A stretch of DNA of 64,000 bases from contig OZ231126.1 in the NCBI GenBank assembly GCA_965153355.1, positions 41,416,001 to 41,480,000 on the forward strand, in the 5' to 3' direction. A program made the position numbers and the translations under genes. This document shows positions 16,978-59,670 of this stretch, piece by piece (the stretch's first letter is position 1; every line of letters begins with the position of its first letter). Source of the stretch: Flaccisagitta enflata. Taxonomy: Eukaryota. The notes beneath the pieces are model-generated. The model was not told the origin of the DNA. It saw nothing but the letters and a program-made list of their open reading frames with translations, and did not search any database.

Positions 16978-17645
16978 GACATTTGATAGTAAACATGACT
17001 TTTACACCGTCTCTGGATCGGAGTTTACAATGCAAAATTCTCTAACTACTGGACAAAAAGTCTTTATATTTTCAGTTGATGTTAGTGAGATTTGTTTTTT
17101 TAAAGCCAACTCTCAGATAAGAGTACTGAACAGGTGGGGGAAAACAAAAAATTGAAAGAACACCCATTTTTAAAGCCAAATCAATTTTTTTCCACGGTGA
17201 TTCTTGAAACGACAGTTCGATAGTTTTGTTTTTTGTTTGTTTTTTTGTTTTTTTGTTTTTGTTTTTTTTACTCCCCGCCAGAACGTAGCTTCGATTCGCA
17301 ACCCAACGCTTGCCCTTTCCCTTACCTTAACCCTAAAAACAACTCCACCCCTAACCTTAACCCTACCCTTAATCCTAATAAATAACCCGCTTATAAAGAC
17401 TTAAAAATAAAGACTTCATCGATTTAAACATGTACCACTTGGATCAAAAAAAAAAAAAAAAAAAAGACGGACTTACTGATTACATCATACAACAGTTACA
17501 AAAAAACAATCTTAACTATTTTTAAATAAGACATTTTTTAAAGATTTGCAAAAAATCTTACAATCTAGACCAATCCCTGGTCTGTATCTGAAATGGTTTA
17601 GAAGCTAGAGCCCTGCAAAAAGAAGCACTAATTTGTTAAAATGCA

Positions 17646-17804
17646 TTTTTTAGTTGCGGACAAGCAACTCTATAAGAGGCTTTGTCCGTCCGTCGGTCCG
17701 TTGGTCCGTCCGTTGGTCCGTAATGATCGAGTCGAAAAGTGGGAAAACACGCATTTCCGCCCCTGCCCACCCGTCCGCAACTGGTGGCCGTGTATCCGGC
17801 CTTG
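17646..17804 (+). mobile_element. HINE-like short element (AGTTGCGGAC subfamily)
   Basis: AGTTGCGGAC-AA-GCAACT head, (GTCC)n tract, GTCCGCAACT subTIR, GGCCG-TGTATC-CGGCC hairpin. Confidence 0.85.
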
Positions 17805-19045
17805 CTATATAAGGATTGCGAAACTGAAATGAGCAATGTTTTTATTCAAACTAATGCCATTTCTAAACGAAAAAAGATAGCAATACCAGATTAGTGCCAA
17901 ATCAAAGAACTTTTTATGGGCTTTCAAATGATCCAGGATTTTACTTAGTTTCCTTGAAAATTATAAGCAAAATTAGCCATTCAAAAGTGCGTCTTTTTTT
18001 TATCCACTGAAAAGGAAATATTCTGGTGGAAGGATGGAAATGACTCGATCATCACGGACGGACGGACGAACGTAAATGGACGGAAAAAGCCTTTTTTAGA
18101 GTTGTACGTATCTCTGCTGCTTTGCTCTTTTGTCTATTTCTGGGTTGACACGATTCATGCTTAGTTGACAATTTTGGCTTCTGAATAAGATTCTAATTCC
18201 GGCAAAGAGACTGAGGAACAGAAGGGAAATACCAAATTTCTTGCAAGTAAGCATGCAAGTAAGCCTGTCTCGGCTTTGAATGAGAGAAAAGGGAGTCACA
18301 TTTTTTTCTCTTCGTACTTAACAGTCACATTGAAAAAAATGATTTTTTAACAAATGGAGATATTTGAAAGGCACAGAACTGAAGAGAAAAAAAAAACATA
18401 AAAAAGCCCTACCTCGGATATAGTAAGACAAACTACTGAAAAAAGCTGACTGCCTACATTTTGGATGAACACAAGAATGTAATTTCATAGAAACGTACAA
18501 TCCCTATCTAAGAAAAAGACAATGAAAAGGAATAAAAAGGAAATTAGCGGTCACGACGCAACTACATTATGTTACCATCTCGACTGATAAACTTCTTTTT
18601 GAATGCATGTTTAATGAATTTTAACAAAACCAGCTAAGGTACCTTCAAGGAATATTTACCGAAATCTTTAGAATGATATTCTGCAAATATCTTCTTTTTA
18701 GATATCCTTAAGAAAACTGTCTGGTTTGATTGGCATGGGCAGACAAAAATCTATCAGCCATCGACTCAGAGTTTATGGATTATTCCAAAACCAAAAATCG
18801 AAAAAACAATGTTTAACAATGGCACTTAAATGTTTACATACCCTTGACTTTAGCGAAAAAGTATAGTAGCAATATATATGCATTTTAAGAGATTAACAGG
18901 CAACAGCATGTTGGAAAAATTACATTTCTGACCGTTAATATACACAGACTAGGCTCTCAATTATGTAAATATTCCTTTCAAGTTACAAACAATGATAACA
19001 TGATTAGCAACTTTTTCTGCGCGGCACAGTCACGACAGCGACAAA

Positions 19046-22000
19046 ATGGCAACCGACTTAATTTGCGTGAATTTAACTCTGATGATCTCCTTCGTACTTA
19101 TCCTATACGCAAAACTCGGCGCTTCGTCGGACAAGTTGGACGCGCCGCCGATACCTTTACTCTCGGCGTCTACTGATAGCTTTCCACCAGCACCATTGAT
19201 TCATCGTAACTCTTTCATCCGTCATCATCCGGCCTGCGCCGTCGTCGAAACTCCACTCGTTTGTGCGTTACAGGAAAATCATGACAACATCCAAACGGCC
19301 GATTCGGTCAAATGGTTCGTCAATGGACGGCAGATTCCCATTTTTGGTGACCCAAACTATGGCATCACCACCGAGGGGAAGTTGCTCATTTGGCGCCTCA
19401 TCGACAACAATCGTAAGTCATCCTCCTCACCAACTCCGTCGGAGAATTCCTCCTCTTCATCGCGAGGTGATCCCTCCCTTCTGGCGCCGGACGATTCGGC
19501 CCCACCAAAACCAGATGATCTTTCCCCGCCTTTGCCATATCCTCCGTTACCGCGTCCAAATGGCACTTGCAAAGGCAACTCGCAGCACATTTCCTTCAAA
19601 TGTCACGCATACAAACAAACCAATGGAAAACCATTTAAGAGGTGGTGGGACTTTTGCGCGGAGCAAAATTCTTGTATGAAAGATGGAAAATGTTTCCACG
19701 AGTTGGCTCCTATTGTCTCCATGGTTCATTCCAACGCCCACAGTAAGAAAGGCAAAGGAGAGGTAAATGATGTCACTGACGAATATCTTAATGCGAAGTT
19801 CCTCTGTCCACCATCTTTTTCTTGCAACATAAGTCTCGTTTCGGCATTGCCTGATAAACCATTTACCGTTCATAGTCGAGTTTACAATTGTGAGAAGTCT
19901 TGTCATGGGTGTAACTTGACATGGAAGCCCGATTTGAAAGCGCTGGATAGGTTGAAATCATTTGTTAATGTCGGATTTGAGCATCCATTCTTCTTCCTAC
20001 TCAACATCGCGGGTCACGAAACACCATCAAGGCTTTTCAACCTCTCAGTGTGGGATGAAGACACACACATTCTAGTCAACCACGTCCTCCTAGGGGAGCC
20101 TACCGATGACCCGTCGCCATCATTAACAAACAAAAACGGGTTGATTATTATTTTTTCAACCTTGGTCGGCATTATCATCATTGTAGCTTTCATCGCGCTA
20201 GCTATCAGAAGAGCTCTTTCTAATCCCGACTCCAACCGACCCAAGCATGAGAAGAAAAGGACTCACTTTTCAGAGTCAGATGCGGAAGTGGCTTTTTTAG
20301 GTCAGAGAGGAGGTGCACCGCTGTTCAAGCCAGATGATCTGGAGCTTACACCACAGTTTGTTGGTGCAGATACAAGTAATCAGGCATCTACGGGTCTATC
20401 AAGAACCCCGGAAGCGAAAGCCGACAGAAGGCGCATTCTGTCCATCCTTATGGCTCCCAATTCCTTTGCATCAGGCGAGTCAAAGCTTGATCCTAATCTA
20501 TGCTTACGTGACGAGGCTTTATCAAAAATAAACCACGAAGGGTTTTATTGCGGGGAGAAGGGAAAAGAAGTGGAAAAGAAGTGGCTCGAAAAGGGTGAAA
20601 TCATCCAGTTTCAAAGTCAAGATAAGTCTTTGTATTTTCTGACATCCAAAATGGCAGAAATTTTTGATGATTTATGGAGCCTCAATTCTGAACAAGTCAC
20701 CCTCAAATCACTGGTTTGCTGTGAGTATGGGGCAGATGCTTCACAGGTTTTGGAAGAGATTTCAAAAGGAATCTTGCCTGAAAAGTTGTTTGTGAAGTAT
20801 CTATGCAAAGAGTATAATTTACCTGAGACTGGAGAAGAAGATTTCATCGCACACTGTGCATTGGACCATTTCAAATGGATGGGGCTTTTAGAGTCGGTAC
20901 CAAATTCTCTCATAAACTTGGATGTGAGAGACCGATGGCTTCAGTTGCCCCACAACTCCAAATCCGACTTCCAAGAGGAATTCTGGTCGACGCAAAATGA
21001 TGTAAATCTGCACCAGGAAGGATACATTTATACAACAGAACATGAATTACCCGAATTTATGTTGCCTTTGATTAAAATGGCGATAAATCCACTTTGCCAG
21101 TATTCTCGCACAAGGGTCTGGAAGGACGGGCTGGTTGCCTCTAATGGTCTGTCCCATTTGTACGTTCAAAGGCAAGGGTCGCCAGGAGCATACAACATGA
21201 ATCAAATCAAAACAGAAAGCGCGCTGACAAGCAGTTGTCTTATGATAGTGTGTAGAGGTCCCGATCAGCAGAAAACCCGTTCACTGCTGCAGGCGATTCA
21301 CAAAGCTTTGATGGGGTATATCACTTTCTGGCCCACAATTCGTCTCGTCCCTTTCTCTGCGTGTTTACCTGATGACGGAAGGATATCAGCACACAAGGAG
21401 TGGGACATGGAGTCTCAGTCAAACACTTGCAACACTTGCAATAAGGATGAAAAAACCCTCTCTGGTGCCACACAGCAAACCAAACCGCATCAAATTGATA
21501 ACCACAACAAACTTAGTGAAAGCATCAATGCCCAAAGACAGGATGGTGGAAAATTCCCAGGGCTTTTTGCCAAAGCAGAGGCAATAGAGTCTATGTCACA
21601 ATCGCTATCATCAAGTGGATATTTCACACTTGATGGTGATCATCAACCATCTGGTCGTTTTGCCAGGTCGTTTCAGTATGTAAATCAGGCTGAATCTGCA
21701 TTGACAGCTGCCAGTGATAATCACATTTGCAAGGAGAGCCTGAAGCAGTATGCAGTTAGCATAGGAATTTGCAAAAATAATACCTATGAGAGTATCGGTT
21801 CAGGAACCTACATGGATATCTCTCGCTCGGATAACAGAATGTATGTTCTGACCAACTTGCATGTCATACAACGCATTATGCAACACCTTCAACAAGAATT
21901 GCCAGAAATCTTTAATAACATTGGGGCCTACAACACTTTTTTAGGACAGCATCAGGTTTACGTTGTCCCAGACAATCACCTTCCATACTTCGCACCAACC

Positions 22001-22084
22001 TGCGACATCGCGTTGTCCAAATTGCATCATCAGAGAGTCAAATTGGGTCAGTCAACACCACAGATCACGTCTTACTGGAAGTAA
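19046..22084 (+). CDS. Type-I membrane protein (1012 aa): signal peptide, Ig-like + Cys-rich ectodomain, TM helix, COR-like region, N-terminal part of a trypsin-like protease
   Basis: Only long complex ORF in the window; start context acaaaATGg. Hydrophobic N-terminus (aa ~5-26). Ig-like C73...VKW90...GKLLI...FKC186. TM LIIIFSTLVGIIIIVAFIALAI (aa 366-387) followed by RR. COR-like motifs WLEKGEIIQF, WLQLP, ELPEFML, VWKDG. Protease motif GSGT...YVLTNLHV (H939). Confidence 0.85.
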   Translation: MATDLICVNLTLMISFVLILYAKLGASSDKLDAPPIPLLSASTDSFPPAPLIHRNSFIRHHPACAVVETPLVCALQENHDNIQTADSVKWFVNGRQIPIFGDPNYGITTEGKLLIWRLIDNNRKSSSSPTPSENSSSSSRGDPSLLAPDDSAPPKPDDLSPPLPYPPLPRPNGTCKGNSQHISFKCHAYKQTNGKPFKRWWDFCAEQNSCMKDGKCFHELAPIVSMVHSNAHSKKGKGEVNDVTDEYLNAKFLCPPSFSCNISLVSALPDKPFTVHSRVYNCEKSCHGCNLTWKPDLKALDRLKSFVNVGFEHPFFFLLNIAGHETPSRLFNLSVWDEDTHILVNHVLLGEPTDDPSPSLTNKNGLIIIFSTLVGIIIIVAFIALAIRRALSNPDSNRPKHEKKRTHFSESDAEVAFLGQRGGAPLFKPDDLELTPQFVGADTSNQASTGLSRTPEAKADRRRILSILMAPNSFASGESKLDPNLCLRDEALSKINHEGFYCGEKGKEVEKKWLEKGEIIQFQSQDKSLYFLTSKMAEIFDDLWSLNSEQVTLKSLVCCEYGADASQVLEEISKGILPEKLFVKYLCKEYNLPETGEEDFIAHCALDHFKWMGLLESVPNSLINLDVRDRWLQLPHNSKSDFQEEFWSTQNDVNLHQEGYIYTTEHELPEFMLPLIKMAINPLCQYSRTRVWKDGLVASNGLSHLYVQRQGSPGAYNMNQIKTESALTSSCLMIVCRGPDQQKTRSLLQAIHKALMGYITFWPTIRLVPFSACLPDDGRISAHKEWDMESQSNTCNTCNKDEKTLSGATQQTKPHQIDNHNKLSESINAQRQDGGKFPGLFAKAEAIESMSQSLSSSGYFTLDGDHQPSGRFARSFQYVNQAESALTAASDNHICKESLKQYAVSIGICKNNTYESIGSGTYMDISRSDNRMYVLTNLHVIQRIMQHLQQELPEIFNNIGAYNTFLGQHQVYVVPDNHLPYFAPTCDIALSKLHHQRVKLGQSTPQITSYWK

Positions 22085-22890
22085 TTGGTGGTGAGATCAA
22101 CAATGAAGGAGCAGCACATTTCGTAGATTTGTCACTCAAAGATAACATTGAGTCATCCATGGCTAATCTCTTAGTCCTTGGTTACCCAACAGTACACCAA
22201 TGCGCCAGTATTATGGTTGATGATGCCAGCTACAAGAGGTCCTTCACTGGGAAATGCGTCGTCAATATCAAGCGAGCACTGAATGAACTGCAGATAAGCG
22301 AAGAGAAGAAAGTTATCATTGCGCAACACTTAAGTGCTCTTGAGACAGATCACAGAATTCAGTGCGTCGTGCGTCATGAGCATGATTTGGAAGATTGTCC
22401 AGTGGCTGACCCGCAAGATGACGCCTTGTACGAGAATCTTATGCGGAGGATTGATCCCAATGATGAGTTAGAGATGCTAACACACCCCGATGCTATGCTC
22501 ATCGATTGTAACTTACGAAATGGTGTCTCCGGGGGCCCCGTATTTGCAGCATATGCCCCAGAGAATTGCTTCCTCCATTATCCAGCAGTTTCTCACAGAA
22601 GGAAACCTTATCTTTTGGGGATATATTGCCGAGGTTTTCCAAAGATCGCCGAGACTCAGCCACCTGGCTTCGATATCACTCAGGCCATAAAAATTTGGAA
22701 CATTTACAATTACACAATCCCACCAGCAAATGAGCGACCGCAGGAAGAAAACCCATATTTCCCGAGGCATTTGCAGCGAGATCAACACGAAAATCGTGAT
22801 TCCGAATTCCCACTTTTGCCGCAATCGTCTCATTCCATTTCGCAGTTTTGCCCATCTTCCCCCGACTCAGTCTTTTTGAGTCATCCGTAA
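21919..22890 (+). CDS. C-terminal part of the trypsin-like serine protease, in the -1 frame relative to 19046-22084
   Basis: Frame is open from 21919 (after TAA TAA) to TAA at 22888-22890, overlapping ORF1 by ~165 nt. Contains TDHVLLEV (candidate catalytic Asp, 22063), LLVLGYP, IDCNLRNGVSGGPVF (catalytic Ser, 22528) and YLLGIY. Confidence 0.8.
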   Translation, partial: HWGLQHFFRTASGLRCPRQSPSILRTNLRHRVVQIASSESQIGSVNTTDHVLLEVIGGEINNEGAAHFVDLSLKDNIESSMANLLVLGYPTVHQCASIMVDDASYKRSFTGKCVVNIKRALNELQISEEKKVIIAQHLSALETDHRIQCVVRHEHDLEDCPVADPQDDALYENLMRRIDPNDELEMLTHPDAMLIDCNLRNGVSGGPVFAAYAPENCFLHYPAVSHRRKPYLLGIYCRGFPKIAETQPPGFDITQAIKIWNIYNYTIPPANERPQEENPYFPRHLQRDQHENRDSEFPLLPQSSHSISQFCPSSPDSVFLSHP

Positions 22891-24896
22891 AACCACCAAT
22901 ATACACTTTCATCGTAGATGAATGTATCACGGATGAATGAATGGACCAAAAGTGGCCTTATGATCATTATGACGGCGTGCAATTTAAGATCATATCGGAA
23001 GTTAGCGATCAATCTATTATTAAAATTCAAAAAGCATATATCTGTTCAAACCATTTCCATCGTTACACATATCTCCCACCATTACCAATCATACATCTAA
23101 CTCCCAACAGAACCAAAACAAAAAGGACCGTTGCAATGGAATTGACCAACTACAGTACCCCTTGTTCCATGCTGGCGTTACGACCGGAACTTCTCTGTCT
23201 GTAACTAATTTTTATCATGCCATTATGATTACAACAGACTTGCGTTTACCATTGCTGTTATCAGCCGGAAGTGCGCGTTTTTACAGTTTTTTATTTTAAG
23301 CATGATAGGCGGACGGACAGATGGACCAATGGACGGATAATGCCTACTCTACGGTCGCAAGTCATATATTTCTGTTACAGGAATGATCCCTGGAATGTTT
23401 TTGAGCGTATGTTTTTTTTCCATTGGCTTGTTATTTGCGTCGTATTTTTGCATTACAACCCCCCCACCCCTGTTGCCACCATCTAATTAACAGGATGTGC
23501 AAACAATTTGGCAAAATTTTACAAAGAACAGTTTTAAATTGCTTTCAAATGATTCTTTAAATCAGAATATAGCTTAGATATGAGGGTTTGTTAGTTTCAT
23601 ATATCTCTTTGCCCACAGGCAGCAAAAATTCATGAATTGAAATCTATGGAGGGGAGGAAAGGTCCATTTATGGTGGTCATGGGAAAATGAATTCTGATAA
23701 ACAAACCAAAATTGATAATGACTTTCAAATTGTTTGATTTGATTTTCTACAATTGTTTTTAAGCCAATTTTGAGTCAGAATGACTGTACTGCTTCTATGA
23801 TGATTATCCCTCAATGAATTGACCACTTTGGTATACTGATTTGGATGTAATATTAAGCTTAGTGGTTGATATCCTCAGCTTTGTTTTACTGGTAAAAATC
23901 CTGTGAAATAGGAGAGTTAGACCGGAGCATAATTCATTCCTTTGCCAACCAAGATTATTCTTATGAAAAACTACACATTTTAACATCTAGTAGAATTAAT
24001 TAGGAGGCTACACCCCAAAATTTGTATTACTGGGCCATCAAGAAGTGTGGTTTTTGTACTTTTATATTTTTGCCAAATTTTTTGCACATCCTGTTACTTG
24101 GCCGTCCCCGCTCATCATCGGCGATTTACATTTTACAACCGCTTAAAGTATTGTTTGCTATCTAAGATAAAATTTCCCATGATTTTTTTCGTTCTGTTTT
24201 ACAATGTTGTATCAATATTCCATCGGTGTACTTATCTTGAATGGTGTATGGAAAATCTTGATTGGAAATAATTGACTACCTCTAAAAAAATCACCTTTCA
24301 GCATTCGTTCGTTCATGTTGACTTACTGTGTCCTGATTCTAATTTACAATGACATGGTTTTGTTTGAGTATATAGGAGCTAATTGCAAATGTGACAATTC
24401 ATATCAATACAGATAAAACAGAAAGATCATAAACAGCATTTTATTAGAGTTTCAAACAAAAGAGAGGAAAAAAGTGAATCAGGATAACCAGTTACCATAT
24501 ACACCTAATGTTAGTATAGTTTTACCTACAGGACTTAGTTGAAAACAAAATAATAACTCTTCCCTTACACTCTTCTACAATAAAAACCGAGTCTATAAGA
24601 ACATTGAAAGGCTTAGAATTAAAAAACGATTCTCGCTTCTATCAACATTTAAAAGAATTGATTTAAGTATGAATTTGATAGTACTCTATAATTTCTAATA
24701 AAGATTTTGTTAAAAAGTTTTACGATTCTACAATTTTGGAATTCAATTTAGGCTATCAACATAGATATATTTAGTACTATCAAATGATAGATAACAATAG
24801 GTTTTTTTTAAACTTTCATGTAGTATTTCAAATTAAGAACGTTTTGAAGATAAGAAAGAACAAAAAGTCTTCAAATAGAAAATAACGTTCTTTTAA

Positions 24897-25131
24897 AACA
24901 AGGCCGGATACACGGCTACCCTAGTCGCGTGCGGGTGGGCAGGAGCAGTGCTGGAGAAGATCACCAGGGCATCTGGGCAGGAGCCGTATGCTTAAAAAGC
25001 TCAAAAACGCCGAAAAAGCCAAAAGGGGACCGACCGACCGACCAACTGATCGACCGACCGACCAACCAACAGACCGACCAACCGACCGACCGACATAGCG
25101 GGATGTAGAGTCACGTGGCACGCGACTAAAA
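24897..25131 (-). mobile_element. HINE-like short element
   Basis: AACAAGGCCGGATACACGGC, AGTCGCGTGC, (GACC)n tract, GCACGCGACTAAAAA. Confidence 0.85.
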
Positions 25132-25244
25132 ATTGTATTTTGGACTAATTCACAGTGCGGAAGCATTTTGTTTGCTCTTTGAGTATGTACTGCCATGGCA
25201 CTGCTTCTGTTGGATCATAGAGAACATCCTGATGAAACAAAAGA

Positions 25245-25436
25245 TTTTCAGTCGCGTGCTACGCGACTCTACACCCCGCTATGTCCGTCCATTGGTCGGT
25301 CGATCGGTCCCCATTTTATTTTTTTCATGTTTTCATGGTCTTTGGCTTCACTGATCCTGCCCAAATGCTCTGGTAACTCAAAAACTGCTATTGCCCACCC
25401 GCACGCGACTGGGGAAGCCGCGTTACCGGCCTTGTT
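25245..25436 (+). mobile_element. HINE-like short element
   Basis: AGTCGCGTGCTACGCGACT head, GCACGCGACT subTIR, CCGGCCTTGTT end. Confidence 0.85.
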
Positions 25437-26100
25437 TTTAATTTCTGATCCTTGTTACCAATAAAGGCGGCTAATCGCCGTAGGAAAAAAGTCGTAAATG
25501 TTGAGAAAAAAAAAAGAGTTGCGGATGTTGGACTGGTGGACAGGGGCATCCGACCCCCATCTATAACCTAACCCCCACACAAGCGTCTAGACCGCTTGTT
25601 TTTCGACTTTTCCACTTGGACAGACAGACAGACTGACAGACCAATAGATGGACTGACGGACAATGCCTCTCATAGAGTCCAGAGTTGAAATGAGAGAGAG
25701 ACTGTGCTCTCAGGATGCGCAATTATCGCCTGGGACATTTAAAAGTTCAAATACACTTTAGCTAACTCAATTCCTTATTTTTGAGAAAAATGCAAAAAAT
25801 GCAAAAAAATGCAACAAGATTCAAAAAATCATAGCTCTGACACTATCAATCGCACAGAATTCTGCTTGGCGTCATCTGAAAGAGGAGATTTAGTTCTTTC
25901 TTAGCTATTAATTTCATGCGTAGTCCCCTTCGGCCCCCAAAATTGACCAATTTCGCAAAAGACTCAGGAGAAAATGGGAAAATCGATTTCCGCCGTAGGT
26001 CTCAAAAAGCCGAAGGTATTCTTCGACTTTTTTCCAAAAAATGCACTCTTTTCTGTTACGTAGGGCACGATTAGGATCAATGATCATTGGGAAAAATGGA

Positions 26101-54751: not shown

Positions 54752-55343
54752 ATTGGACCCCTGTTGGACCTTTGTAAATAACACGCGTTGGACCTTTGTA
54801 AATGACGCCCATTGGACCTTCATAAATGACGCCCATTGGACCTTCGTAAATGACGCTCGTTGGACCTTTGTAAATGACGCCCGTTGGACCTTCGAAAATG
54901 ACGCCCGTTGGGCCTTGGTAAATGACGCCCGTTGGACCTTTGTAAAGGACGCCCGTTGGACCTTCGTAAATGACGCCTGTTGGACCTTCGTAAATGACGC
55001 CCGTTGGACCTTCGTAAATGACGCCCGTTGGACCTTGGTAAATGACGCCTGTTGGACCTTGGTAAATGATGCCAGTTGGACCTTGGTAAATGACGCCCGT
55101 TGGACCTTTGTAAATGAGGCCTGTTGGATCTTTGTAAATGAGGCATGTTGGACATCGTAAATGACGCCCGTTGGACCTTTGTAAATGATGCCCGTTGAAC
55201 CTTTGTAAATGACGCCCATTGGACCTTTGTAAATGACGCCCATTGGACCTTCGTAAATGAGGCCTGTTGGACCTTCGTGAATGACGCCTGTTGGACCTTT
55301 GTAAATGACGCCCATTGGACCTTTGTAAATGACACCCGTTGGA
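54752..55343. repeat. 24-bp minisatellite
   Basis: About 24 copies of TTGGACCTTTGTAAATGACGCCCG. Confidence 0.95.
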
Positions 55344-55921
55344 CTAGTTGAAACAACATTGCCCCAACAAGAGGAGGCCAGAATTCTCCAATTCACAAAG
55401 GATGAAAGCCTTGCAAGCTTTCAATGGTGTTTACTCCGGATTGCTCACAACTATCCTTTACTATTGAAAAACAAAATAAAATACCTGACAAAACTATCAG
55501 CTTGACTGCATACCTCATTAGTATAGGGTTTGACAGACCTATACACAAAATATGTGACAAATAACAATCAAAGATTACTAATGTACTGGTGGAAGTACTG
55601 GCACTAGCAATATTGATTAAAAAACCATACCCTTAGAGGCAAGAATCGAGGTACAACCATTTGGGACCGCCGGCATTCTCTACCAAGGTACTAATACTTA
55701 TGAAAGTTGAAACAACATTGCCCTTACAAAAGGAGGCCAGAATTCTCCAATTCTTATAGTATGCAAGCTTTCAATGGTATTTAATGGTATTCAACGGTAT
55801 TTAACGGTATTCAATGGTATTTAACACTCTTATCGTCTCCTTATCCTCATTGTGTTCCACGATAGTGGAACACTAAAGTTTCAGAATTTCTCCGTACGTA
55901 CGTACGTACGTACATACGTGC

Positions 55922-56770
55922 GTATGTCACACAGCCCAGAATTCTCCGATGTATGTCACACAACCCAGTTTTTTCCGATGTATGTCACACAGCCCAGAAT
56001 TCTCCGATGTATGTCACACCACCCAGTTTTCTCCAATGTATGTCACACAGCCCAGAATTCTCCAATGTATGTCACACTACCCAGTTTTCTCCAATATATG
56101 TCACACAGTCCAGAATTCTCCGATGTATGTCACACAGCCCTAGAATTCTCCGATGAATGTCACACAACCCAGTTTTCTCCGATGTATGTCACACAGCCCA
56201 GAATTCACCGATGTATGTCACACTACCCAGTTTTCTCCAATGTATGTCACACAGCCCAGAATTCTCCAATGTATGTCACACCACCCAGTTTTCTCCGATG
56301 TATGTCACACCACCCAGTTTTCTCCGATGTATGTCACACAGCCCAGTTTTCTCCAATGTATGTCACACAGCCCAGAATTCTCCAATGTATGTCACACCAC
56401 CCAGTTTTTTCCGGTGTATGTCACACAGCCCAGAATTCTCCGATGTATGTCACACAGCCCAGAATTCTCCGATGTATGTCACACAACCCAGTTTTCTCCG
56501 ATATATGTCACAGCCCAGAACTCTGATGTATGTCTAATCACCCAGTTTTCTCCAATGTATGTCACACAGCCCAGAATTCTCCAATGTATGTAACACAACC
56601 TAGTTTTCTCCGATATATGTCACACAGCCCAAAATTCTCTGATGTATGTCACATCACCCAGTTTTCTCATATGTATGTCACACAGCCCAGAATTCTCCAA
56701 TGTATGTTGCACAATCCAGTTTTCTCCAATGTATGTCACACAGTCCAGAATTCTCCGATGTATGTCACCA
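55922..56770. repeat. 29-bp minisatellite with two unit types; further blocks at ~58206-58354, ~58677-58910, ~59257-59390
   Basis: TGTATGTCACACAGCCCAGAATTCTCCGA largely alternates with TGTATGTCACACCACCCAGTTTTCTCCAA. Confidence 0.95.
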
Positions 56771-58060: not shown

Positions 58061-59465
58061 TACCGAGAGCAGCATTTGTAAATGGGAAAAGGGCTAACTG
58101 ACAAAAAATTGACCTATGGTCCATACTGAGTCGATACTTTGTTTGGGATCGACCATGATTCGATCGACCCGGTCGATACTGTAAAAAGGAAAATCGTGAC
58201 ACCTCTGTATGTCACACAACCCAGTTTTCTCCAATGTATGTCCAACAGCCCAGAATTCTCCAATGTATGTCACACCACCTAGTTTTCTCCAATGTATGTC
58301 ACACAGCCCAGAATTCTCCAATGTATGTCAGACCACCTAGTTTTCGCCGATGTATTAAAGTTGAAACAACATTGCCTTTAGAAAAGGAGGCCAGAATTCT
58401 CCAATTTACAAAGGATGAAAGCCTTGCAAGCTTTCAATGGTGTTTACTCCGGATTGCTCACAACTATCCTTTACAATTAACAAAAGAAATGCTTACCTGA
58501 AAAAACTATTAGCTTGACTGCATACCTCATTAGTATAAGTTCGAACAGGCCTATACCATTTAGTATACACAAAATCTCTTAAAAAAGTAACAATCAAACA
58601 TTACTAATGTACTGGTGGAAGTACTGACACTAGCAATATTGATTAGAAAACCATACCCTTAGAGGCAAGAATTGAGGTATGTCACACAGCCCAGAATTCT
58701 CCGATATATGTCACATCACCTAGTTTTCTCCGATGTATGTCACACAGCCCGGAATTCTCCGATGTATGTCACACAGCCCCAAATTATCCCATGTATTTCA
58801 CACCACCCAGTTTTCTCCGATGTATGTCACACAGCCCAGAATTCTCCAATGTTTGTCACACCACCCAGTTTTCTCCAATGTATGTCACAGTTCAGAATTC
58901 TCTGATGTATGAAAGTTGGACAACATTACTACCCACTAATATCTTAAATAAGGACAAGAGCCTTTGGAGCTCTTACTGGTGTTTAATCCGGACCCATCAC
59001 AACTATCCTTTAAGTTTCTGAAAAAACATTCCCTCTTCAGAAATTATCATAGGACTTGTCAAAATTTATGCAACATTTAGAAAAGGGTAATCAATTTCTC
59101 TCTATACATGAGATTTGCAGACCACAAGAAAACACTTGATAAATATGGCGGCACGAAAGAGACCATATCCATCTGGGCACCTTCTTATACTCCTCATATA
59201 CCAAAGATAGCAAGAAACTCAAATTCTCTTCCTCCTGAAACAACCCTCTCAAAAACACCACCCAGTTTTTCTCCAATGTATATCATACAGCCCTGTATTC
59301 TTTGATGTATGTCACACCACCCAGTTTGTTCCAATGTATGTCACACAGCCCTATATTCTCCAATGTATGTCTCACAACCCCACTTTCTCCACACACTTGC
59401 ACACACATACACTTACACACACACACACACACACACACACACGCGCGCGCGCGCACACACACACA

Positions 59466-59670
59466 GGTGGCAGTGGGACTGCCCACAGGCCACAGTGGGA
59501 CCGCCCAAAGGCGGCAATGGGACCACCCACAGGTTGCAGTGGGACCACCCACAAGTGGCAATAGGGCCGCCCACAGGCGGCAGTGGGACCGCCCACAGGC
59601 GGCAGTGAGGCCGCCCATAGGCGGCAGTGAGGTCGCCCATGGATGGTAGTTAGGCCGCCCACAGGCGGCC
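59466..59670. repeat. 22-bp GC-rich minisatellite
   Basis: About 9 copies of GGCGGCAGTGGGACCGCCCACA. Confidence 0.9.

Follow-up and report, generated by a model that had tools for sequence, protein, structure and literature searches.

Within a 64,000-nucleotide stretch of Flaccisagitta enflata DNA (assembly GCA_965153355.1, contig OZ231126.1, positions 41,416,001 to 41,480,000 of the forward strand; hereafter the window, numbered from its first letter), we analyzed a candidate coding sequence on the + strand that runs from an ATG at 19046 to a TAA stop at 22888–22890. The gene is predicted to encode a type I membrane protein that is restricted to its lineage and bears a trypsin-type protease domain, cytosolic and probably active, a reading of the sequence to which we assign a probability of roughly 0.58. 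In the proposed layout, a Cys-rich, glycosylatable and unusually polymorphic ectodomain would be followed by one transmembrane (TM) helix, a cytoplasmic region of ~500 residues and a C-terminal Trypsin_2-like protease domain.

The start ATG lies in a good context (acaaaATGg), and the gene is the sole long non-repetitive open reading frame (ORF) of the window, whose DNA is 41% G+C and eukaryotic in style; none of the other ORFs of at least 90 codons exceeds 247 codons, and most of them lie inside microsatellites or minisatellites. The window copy is laid out as two overlapping frames on the same + strand, with frame A open from 19004 to 22084 (1026 codons stop to stop, terminal TAA at 22082–22084) and frame B open from 21919 to 22890 (323 codons). 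Deleting 2 letters at 21992 joins the two into 1280 codons, with LPYF of frame A running directly into TNLRH of frame B, and residues are numbered here in this 1280-residue form (frame A to 21991 joined to frame B from 21994). The original prediction had placed a joined protein of ~1281 residues at 19046–22890: its ATG and stop are exact and a long coding sequence is present, but the window copy consists of two frames and needs a frame change to yield that protein, and the break itself had gone unmentioned. As far as can be seen from the sequence, the gene is confined to one exon. No paralogues of either coding part were detected by tblastn within the window, which also gave no Rfam match. The gene is divided as follows.

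19046 to 21991, + strand: coding part 1 (frame A), residues 1–982, comprising the signal-like N-terminus, the predicted ectodomain, the TM helix, the middle region on the cytoplasmic side and that half of the protease-like domain which contains the His.
21992 to 21993, + strand: two letters present in the window and missing from the DNA contigs of two sequencing runs (X1 and X2, below); they change the reading frame after the His motif and before the Asp motif.
21994 to 22890, + strand: coding part 2 (frame B), residues 983–1280 plus the stop, which supplies the Asp and Ser portions of the protease-like domain and ends in a C-terminal tail.

The protease assignment draws on motifs, profiles and language-model neighbors. 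All elements of the trypsin-like motif set that had been claimed for this protein are present and ordered, namely GSG (at 918), TNLHV, DHVLLEV, GYP (at 1045), GVSGGP and LLGI (at 1189), and the His, Asp and Ser motifs occur in canonical order with canonical local context. Across 20000 shuffles of the protein, G.SGGP arose in 13 and TN.HV in 114, whereas the ordered three-motif combination arose in 0. The corresponding features are listed below, together with a rival Asp motif in the other frame.

21773 to 22647, + strand: trypsin-like (PA-clan type) domain predicted from profiles, Atlas neighbors and motifs, about residues 910–1200, interrupted by the 2-letter shift.
21851 to 21865, + strand: TNLHV, with the candidate catalytic His939 (cat at 21860–21862); the motif is kept in a distant relative, P0002 (ITNLHVIQKIM).
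22063 to 22083, + strand: DHVLLEV in frame B, with the candidate catalytic Asp1006, found by motif search.
22003 to 22026, + strand: CDIALSKL in frame A, the rival Asp motif, read from the sequence.
22522 to 22539, + strand: GVSGGP, with the candidate catalytic Ser1161, inside the Trypsin_2 match (part 2 residues 144–185).

For profile searches, the domain was scanned in two pieces, one on each side of the frame break, against a Pfam set of 24736 families. Trypsin_2 aligned to the Ser region with E 0.16–0.17, late in the profile (positions 97–136 of 144), and Mycop_pep_DUF31 aligned to the His region with E 0.095, early in the profile (positions 49–76 of 346; 12.8 bits against a cut-off of 27); among the Atlas neighbors, the latter family is found together with Trypsin and Trypsin_2 on single proteins. 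By our own estimate, as opposed to a computed value, two independent segments that match trypsin-type families at the right ends of their profiles are unlikely to be a product of chance. Over the Ser region, the PADLOC candidate family PDC-S45 also aligned (E 0.004). The Atlas (protein language model) neighbors of part 2 scored 0.91–0.94 and belonged mostly to Trypsin_2 or Trypsin clusters; the ten best family-bearing matches all shared a family or clan (10/10), the families listed being trypsin-type peptidases. The Trypsin_2-style protease of the original prediction is therefore retained as a candidate on its motif set, its sub-threshold profile matches and its Atlas neighbors, but at the level of curated cut-offs it could not be confirmed for any family.

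We also considered that the C-terminal region is not an active protease at all, and is instead a pseudo-enzyme or an unrelated fold that mimics trypsin motifs. Such an interpretation would accommodate the sub-threshold scores of every profile match, the behavior of a home-made hidden Markov model (HMM) of the E. coli proteins DegP, DegQ, DegS and YdgD, which aligned the His motif alone (2.9 bits), and the insert that separates GYP from the Ser motif, which is long and looks helical in a low-confidence secondary structure. It is harder to reconcile with three ordered motifs in canonical local context, with the two independent segments that match trypsin-type families at fitting profile positions, and with the agreement of the language-model neighbors, and we consider it very unlikely.

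The topology signals place the predicted protease past the TM helix on its basic side. Hydropathy analysis identified two hydrophobic segments only, residues 1–26 and residues 365–387, which delimit the following features.

19046 to 19123, + strand: hydrophobic N-terminus, residues 1–26, interpreted as a signal peptide (Kyte-Doolittle means over 19 residues reach 2.14).
19127 to 20137, + strand: predicted ectodomain, residues 28–364, with 12 Cys and 5 sequons; it holds C73, W90 and C186.
20138 to 20206, + strand: TM helix, residues 365–387 (hydropathy up to 3.12), followed by RRALSNPDSNRPKHEKKR.

Lysine and arginine account for 7 of the 20 residues after the TM helix and 1 of the 15 before it. 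The 337 residues between the hydrophobic segments contain 12 Cys and 5 N-x-S/T sequons, and the 893 residues past the TM helix contain 3 sequons. Because the basic flank of a TM helix lies on the cytosolic side (the positive-inside rule), the basic C-terminal flank supports a cytosolic location for the C-terminal 893 residues, whether or not the N-terminal segment is cleaved. These signals (hydropathy, lysine/arginine flank, and distribution of Cys and sequons) bear out the earlier proposals of a signal-like N-terminus, a Cys-rich segment with sequons, a single TM helix followed by basic residues, and a protease on the cytoplasmic side. The ectodomain gave no Pfam or NCBIfam match, and its one weak match to PHROGs, of unknown function (E 0.12), is meaningless.

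Relatives of the protein are few. A HMMER scan of 1.84 billion representative proteins with residues 1–1012 returned exactly two matches, both short fragments, unnamed, and each a singleton cluster. The first, P0001 (152 residues, E 9.3e-26, 37% identity), aligned to residues 612–764, and the second, P0002 (123 residues, E 1.1e-13, 55% identity), aligned to residues 911–981 and keeps GSGT and TNLHVIQ. P0001 defines a conserved block in the middle region.

20879 to 21337, + strand: conserved cytoplasmic block, residues 612–764, the core of the region that had been called COR-like (P0001 E 9.3e-26, 37% identity; no named family).

The source label of P0001 is 'merc', which we take to be a catalogue built from marine eukaryote metatranscriptomes; if this is right, a relative is transcribed. 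The homology of P0002 to the window protein ends at LPY, the same residue as the 2-letter indel, and its residues 85–123 match neither frame of the window; the LPY point may be the site of an intron or an indel hot spot in this family. The protein gave 0 matches in NCBIfam.

A number of results weigh against the membrane-protease reading. Trypsin_2 scored 13.1 bits against its curated cut-off of 27.6, and no family reached its cut-off. The distances from His to Asp (67 residues) and from Asp to Ser (155 residues) imply large inserts, typical trypsin-like enzymes having shorter spacings between their catalytic residues, and a third of shuffled proteins also obtained ten of ten concordant Atlas matches. 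Single-sequence AlphaFold2 models were unusable both for residues 1–982, which include the proposed Ig and COR regions and the His part of the protease (mean predicted local distance difference test score, pLDDT, 35.0), and for residues 983–1280 (mean pLDDT 33.3). Part 2 had no significant homologue in three word-based searches (1039, 254 and 28 candidates; longer, near and shorter, respectively), a single-protein scan of metagenome contigs recovered no relative, and a DNA search with a degenerate pattern for TNLHVIQxIM came back with 0 matches. A viral contig collection likewise contained nothing related to the middle region or part 2, and no relative was found in prokaryote genomes or, by tblastn, in plasmids. 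Further points emerged from four public sequencing runs compared with the window over 17300–25000, namely two DNA runs from the same organism (X1 and X2), a marine metagenome (X3) and the one RNA run of the organism (X7). The window copy of the gene is frameshifted. Among the listed coding differences, 12 of 15 are nonsynonymous and 3 of 15 synonymous, matching the random expectation of 22% synonymous, although these 15 are a small, selected subset of the 507 differences. The RNA run (polyA, ~6 in 100 reads used) placed 0 reads over 18328–24752, that is, over the whole gene, which counts against function, and near nothing over 18071–18327 (bin mean 0.02), although a single RNA library says little about silence.

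The frameshift at 21992 and the share of nonsynonymous variants would also be expected of a decaying or dead gene, a relic architecture without present function that combines a real frameshift, relaxed constraint and lack of expression. The DNA runs bear directly on the frameshift. In the contigs of both X1 and X2, one contig each, 2 letters are left out at 21992, with a depth for the change of 135.2/135.2 in each run. The X3 contig over 21746–22043 is without this deletion, but it has 299 letters for 298 window positions, and its one extra letter would also restore the frame if it fell before 22084. Because other DNA data sets of the organism carry a frame-restoring form, the window copy is the odd one, and its frameshift represents an error of assembly or else a null allele. 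The other indels seen in the gene leave the frame intact (an insertion of CAC after 20221, and a gain of 9 letters in an X3 piece over 20140–20640).

Perhaps by coincidence, both frames spell an Asp-type motif at the break (22003–22083), where frame A reads CDIALSKL and frame B reads TTDHVLLEV. Over these 30 codons, the held-out codon score is 0.213 for frame A and 0.073 for frame B, a sample that is too short to outweigh the direct DNA evidence for the form lacking 2 letters. A 35-nt GT..AG intron at 22047–22081, which would link frame A to frame B and use CDIALSKL, was set aside as unneeded given the allele lacking 2 letters in X1 and X2, although it may still be real, because frame A scores higher over the 30 codons.

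The codon-usage score was best in the proposed frame in 45/45 sliding windows, a result that is partly circular in that the score was trained on the ORF itself; a held-out Ser/Pro-rich segment of the ectodomain also scored best in frame. No stop interrupts the 1280 codons despite a difference of 2–8% between haplotypes. The variation is unevenly distributed: 10 of the 12 nonsynonymous changes fall within residues 28–236, and in the ectodomain segment 19519–19824 two X2 contigs depart from the window sequence in 25 and 26 of the 306 letters (about 8.5%), which is three to four times the 2–3% by which cytoplasmic pieces differ. The ectodomain is therefore subject either to diversifying selection or to weak constraint. 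In X3, coding pieces diverge by 1.7–4.5% and flanking non-coding pieces by 5.6–6.6%.

Decay would draw on the broken window copy, on the 12 nonsynonymous variants among the 15 listed, and on a coding divergence in X3 that lies only moderately below that of the flanks. Set against this are the frame-restoring form in X1 and X2, the length change of +1 in X3 that would have the same effect, the 1280 codons that stay open despite the haplotype differences, the remaining indels of the gene, which are multiples of three, and two cytoplasmic blocks kept at 37–55% identity in relatives. On balance, we view a decaying or dead gene as possible but unlikely.

Two further domain proposals fared differently. 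The first was an immunoglobulin (Ig)-like pattern formed by C73, W90 and C186 in the ectodomain. The letters are present, but no Ig family matched, PDB sequences and language-model searches likewise gave nothing in its favor, and the distance from W to C is 96 residues because a Ser/Pro-rich stretch intervenes.

19412 to 19573, + strand: Ser/Pro-rich stretch of 54 codons within the claimed Ig pattern, bounded by GTAAGT (19413) and by a pyrimidine tract with AG (19574).

With Ig, I-set, V-set and C2-set profiles in view, 0 Pfam families were obtained at E up to 10 for residues 28–364, residues 48–122 or residues 178–364. C73 and C186 are separated by 113 residues, compared with an expected Ig core of about 55–75, and the separation becomes 59 only if the 54-codon stretch is looped or spliced out. 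At 19413–19574, GTAAGT and a pyrimidine tract with AG lie 162 nt apart, in frame and in phase 1, and removal of this segment would give canonical Cys-Trp-Cys spacing. We rejected this intron as probably a chance occurrence, given that GTRAGT is found at 0.36 per kb here and that the in-frame codon score of the stretch is normal (held-out score 0.148, versus −0.24 in the other frames); the stretch is probably coding. C73, W90 and FKC186HA may resemble Ig strands B, C and F.

The second proposal, a COR-like middle region, found no support from Pfam, PDB sequences or Atlas, and no GTPase motif accompanies it. No Pfam family, COR profiles included, matched the middle region at E up to 10 except DUF6970 (E 0.06–0.14, meaningless). 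A phmmer search of the PDB with residues 388–982 gave 0 matches at E up to 10, a profile built from residues 611–775 and P0001 gave 8 unrelated PDB matches (E 0.39 or worse), and Atlas gave no usable match for this region; PDB sequence searches returned nothing relevant to the protein. Roc GTPase motifs were also sought, and neither [GA]xxxxGK[ST], GK[ST] nor [NT]KxD occurs anywhere in the protein, nor DxxG in residues 388–900. Judged by its motifs, the protein is not a ROCO protein, since it has no P-loop, NKxD or DxxG motif. A COR-B-like pattern in residues 655–765 (Y..LP....I....W.DG...L.I.C.G....LL..I...L.....W) was recognized by eye, which is not a test.

An origin from a virus or mobile element was weighed as well, in which the ORF would be, for example, the glycoprotein-TM-serine protease piece of a viral polyprotein, endogenized or element-borne, and not a host receptor. 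The ORF is an intronless orphan with high-copy repeats on both flanks, and the viral protease families Peptidase_S7, Peptidase_S29 and Peptidase_S39 are among its Atlas neighbors. On the other hand, the viral contig search noted above was negative for the middle region and part 2, PHROGs gave no meaningful match, no helicase or polymerase ORF lies nearby, and the ORF has its own Met, signal-like segment and stop. The flanking repeats, moreover, are separate copies of a short element resembling a miniature inverted-repeat transposable element (MITE), not the ends of one element. We therefore regard such an origin as most improbable.

Several classes of repeat surround the gene. Copies of a very high-copy short element flank it in opposite orientation at 17647–17813 and 24890–25441, the downstream copy being MITE-like with 65-nt inverted arms (24892–24956 and 25377–25441). 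The DNA word depth of this element climbs to ~1e7, and the RNA run stands at ~200x over 17557–17813. Just downstream of the gene, a mid-copy repeat at 23468–24238 carries 40-nt inverted arms (23485–23524 and 24060–24099) and, in the DNA runs, exceeds the gene 100- to 1000-fold in depth. Farther along, minisatellite arrays occupy 54756–55344, 55922–56768, 58677–58911 and 59462–59669, in which units of 24, 29 and 22 nt are repeated up to 29 times. Microsatellites of the (GA)n, (GT)n and (GACC)n types are numerous across the window and, together with the minisatellites, yield long spurious ORFs.

Among known proteases, Trypsin_2/HtrA-type enzymes such as E. coli DegS and DegP have in common with the predicted domain the series GSG...TN-x-HV, D-x-x-L-L and G-x-SGG-P followed by L-L-G-I, and DegS is likewise membrane-anchored and is switched on by a signal. 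Compared with the HtrA/Deg proteins, however, the window protein shows no PDZ match (none in part 2 at E up to 10), no profile match above cut-off and much longer inserts between the catalytic residues; its protease is also predicted to be cytosolic behind a large ectodomain, whereas Deg proteases are periplasmic. The vertebrate proteins FAM111A and FAM111B resemble it in carrying an intracellular Trypsin_2-style protease with long inserts at the C-terminus of a larger protein, and differ in being without a signal peptide or TM helix. There is no detectable sequence relation to FAM111A/B in the database searches (two fragments of 1.84 billion proteins for part 1, none for part 2). The type II transmembrane serine proteases (matriptase, hepsin and TMPRSS2) are also membrane-anchored and have a chymotrypsin-fold serine protease, as predicted here, but with an N-terminal anchor and an extracellular protease, the opposite of the arrangement predicted for the window protein, in which the protease lies past the TM helix on its basic side. 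Their protease belongs to the classical Trypsin family PF00089 with disulfides. At the level of mechanism only, the window protein would follow the same principle as caspase-8 at death receptors and the paracaspase MALT1, in which clustering of a membrane receptor activates a cytosolic protease; those are caspase-fold cysteine proteases recruited through adaptor domains, whereas here the receptor chain itself would include a predicted serine protease.

The nearest architectural analogues are found in bacterial conflict systems, among which the window protein is at most a putative member. Bacterial proteins that combine an AP-GTPase with COR can carry a trypsin domain in the effector position at their C-terminus (Kaur et al. 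2021, eLife, PMC8195603), and the effectors described for conflict systems include trypsin-like peptidases, some of them fused to TM segments (Kaur et al. 2020, PMC7159879). If the middle region were COR-like, the order of COR followed by a trypsin effector would match these ROCO-type proteins, as would the principle of linking a sensor to a protease effector. The window protein nevertheless differs from them in having neither GTPase motifs nor a COR match, and in being a predicted eukaryotic membrane protein with an ectodomain. Among the papers listed by full-text literature searches, none, judged by its title and the start of its abstract, concerns a receptor with a cytoplasmic, intracellular or cytosolic trypsin-like domain, and wider searches also brought up nothing relevant, in agreement with the earlier remark that the architecture was not recognized from any described animal gene; the supplements of Kaur et al. 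may list eukaryotic examples.

In the mechanism that we propose as plausible and attractive, the protease would be held at the inner face of the membrane, and clustering through the ectodomain or the middle region would switch it on by proximity, after which it may cleave itself, or substrates in the cytosol, and thereby signal or bring about cell death. Activation by ligand-driven dimerization, as first suggested for this protein, is pure inference. A wider proposal, which we put forward as speculative and quite doubtful, is that the gene represents a family of type I surface receptors in planktonic marine eukaryotes, in which a hypervariable ectodomain is followed by a GTPase-less COR-like dimerizing module and a cytosolic trypsin-like protease, and which would form an immune or cell-death receptor class without a described counterpart. 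Such receptors may have been assembled from the sensor-plus-trypsin-effector logic of bacterial conflict systems.

Animal chymotrypsin-fold serine proteases mostly work outside the cell or in organelles, and proteolytic signaling by receptors usually relies on the recruitment of separate cysteine proteases. If the present reading is correct, a receptor chain with its own cytosolic serine protease would constitute a new way to pass from an outside signal to an irreversible inside event, and the very high polymorphism of its ectodomain would suggest a role in recognizing pathogens or in telling self from non-self. The recovery of two fragments among 1.84 billion representative proteins suggests, in addition, that the gene content of marine plankton is poorly covered by protein databases.

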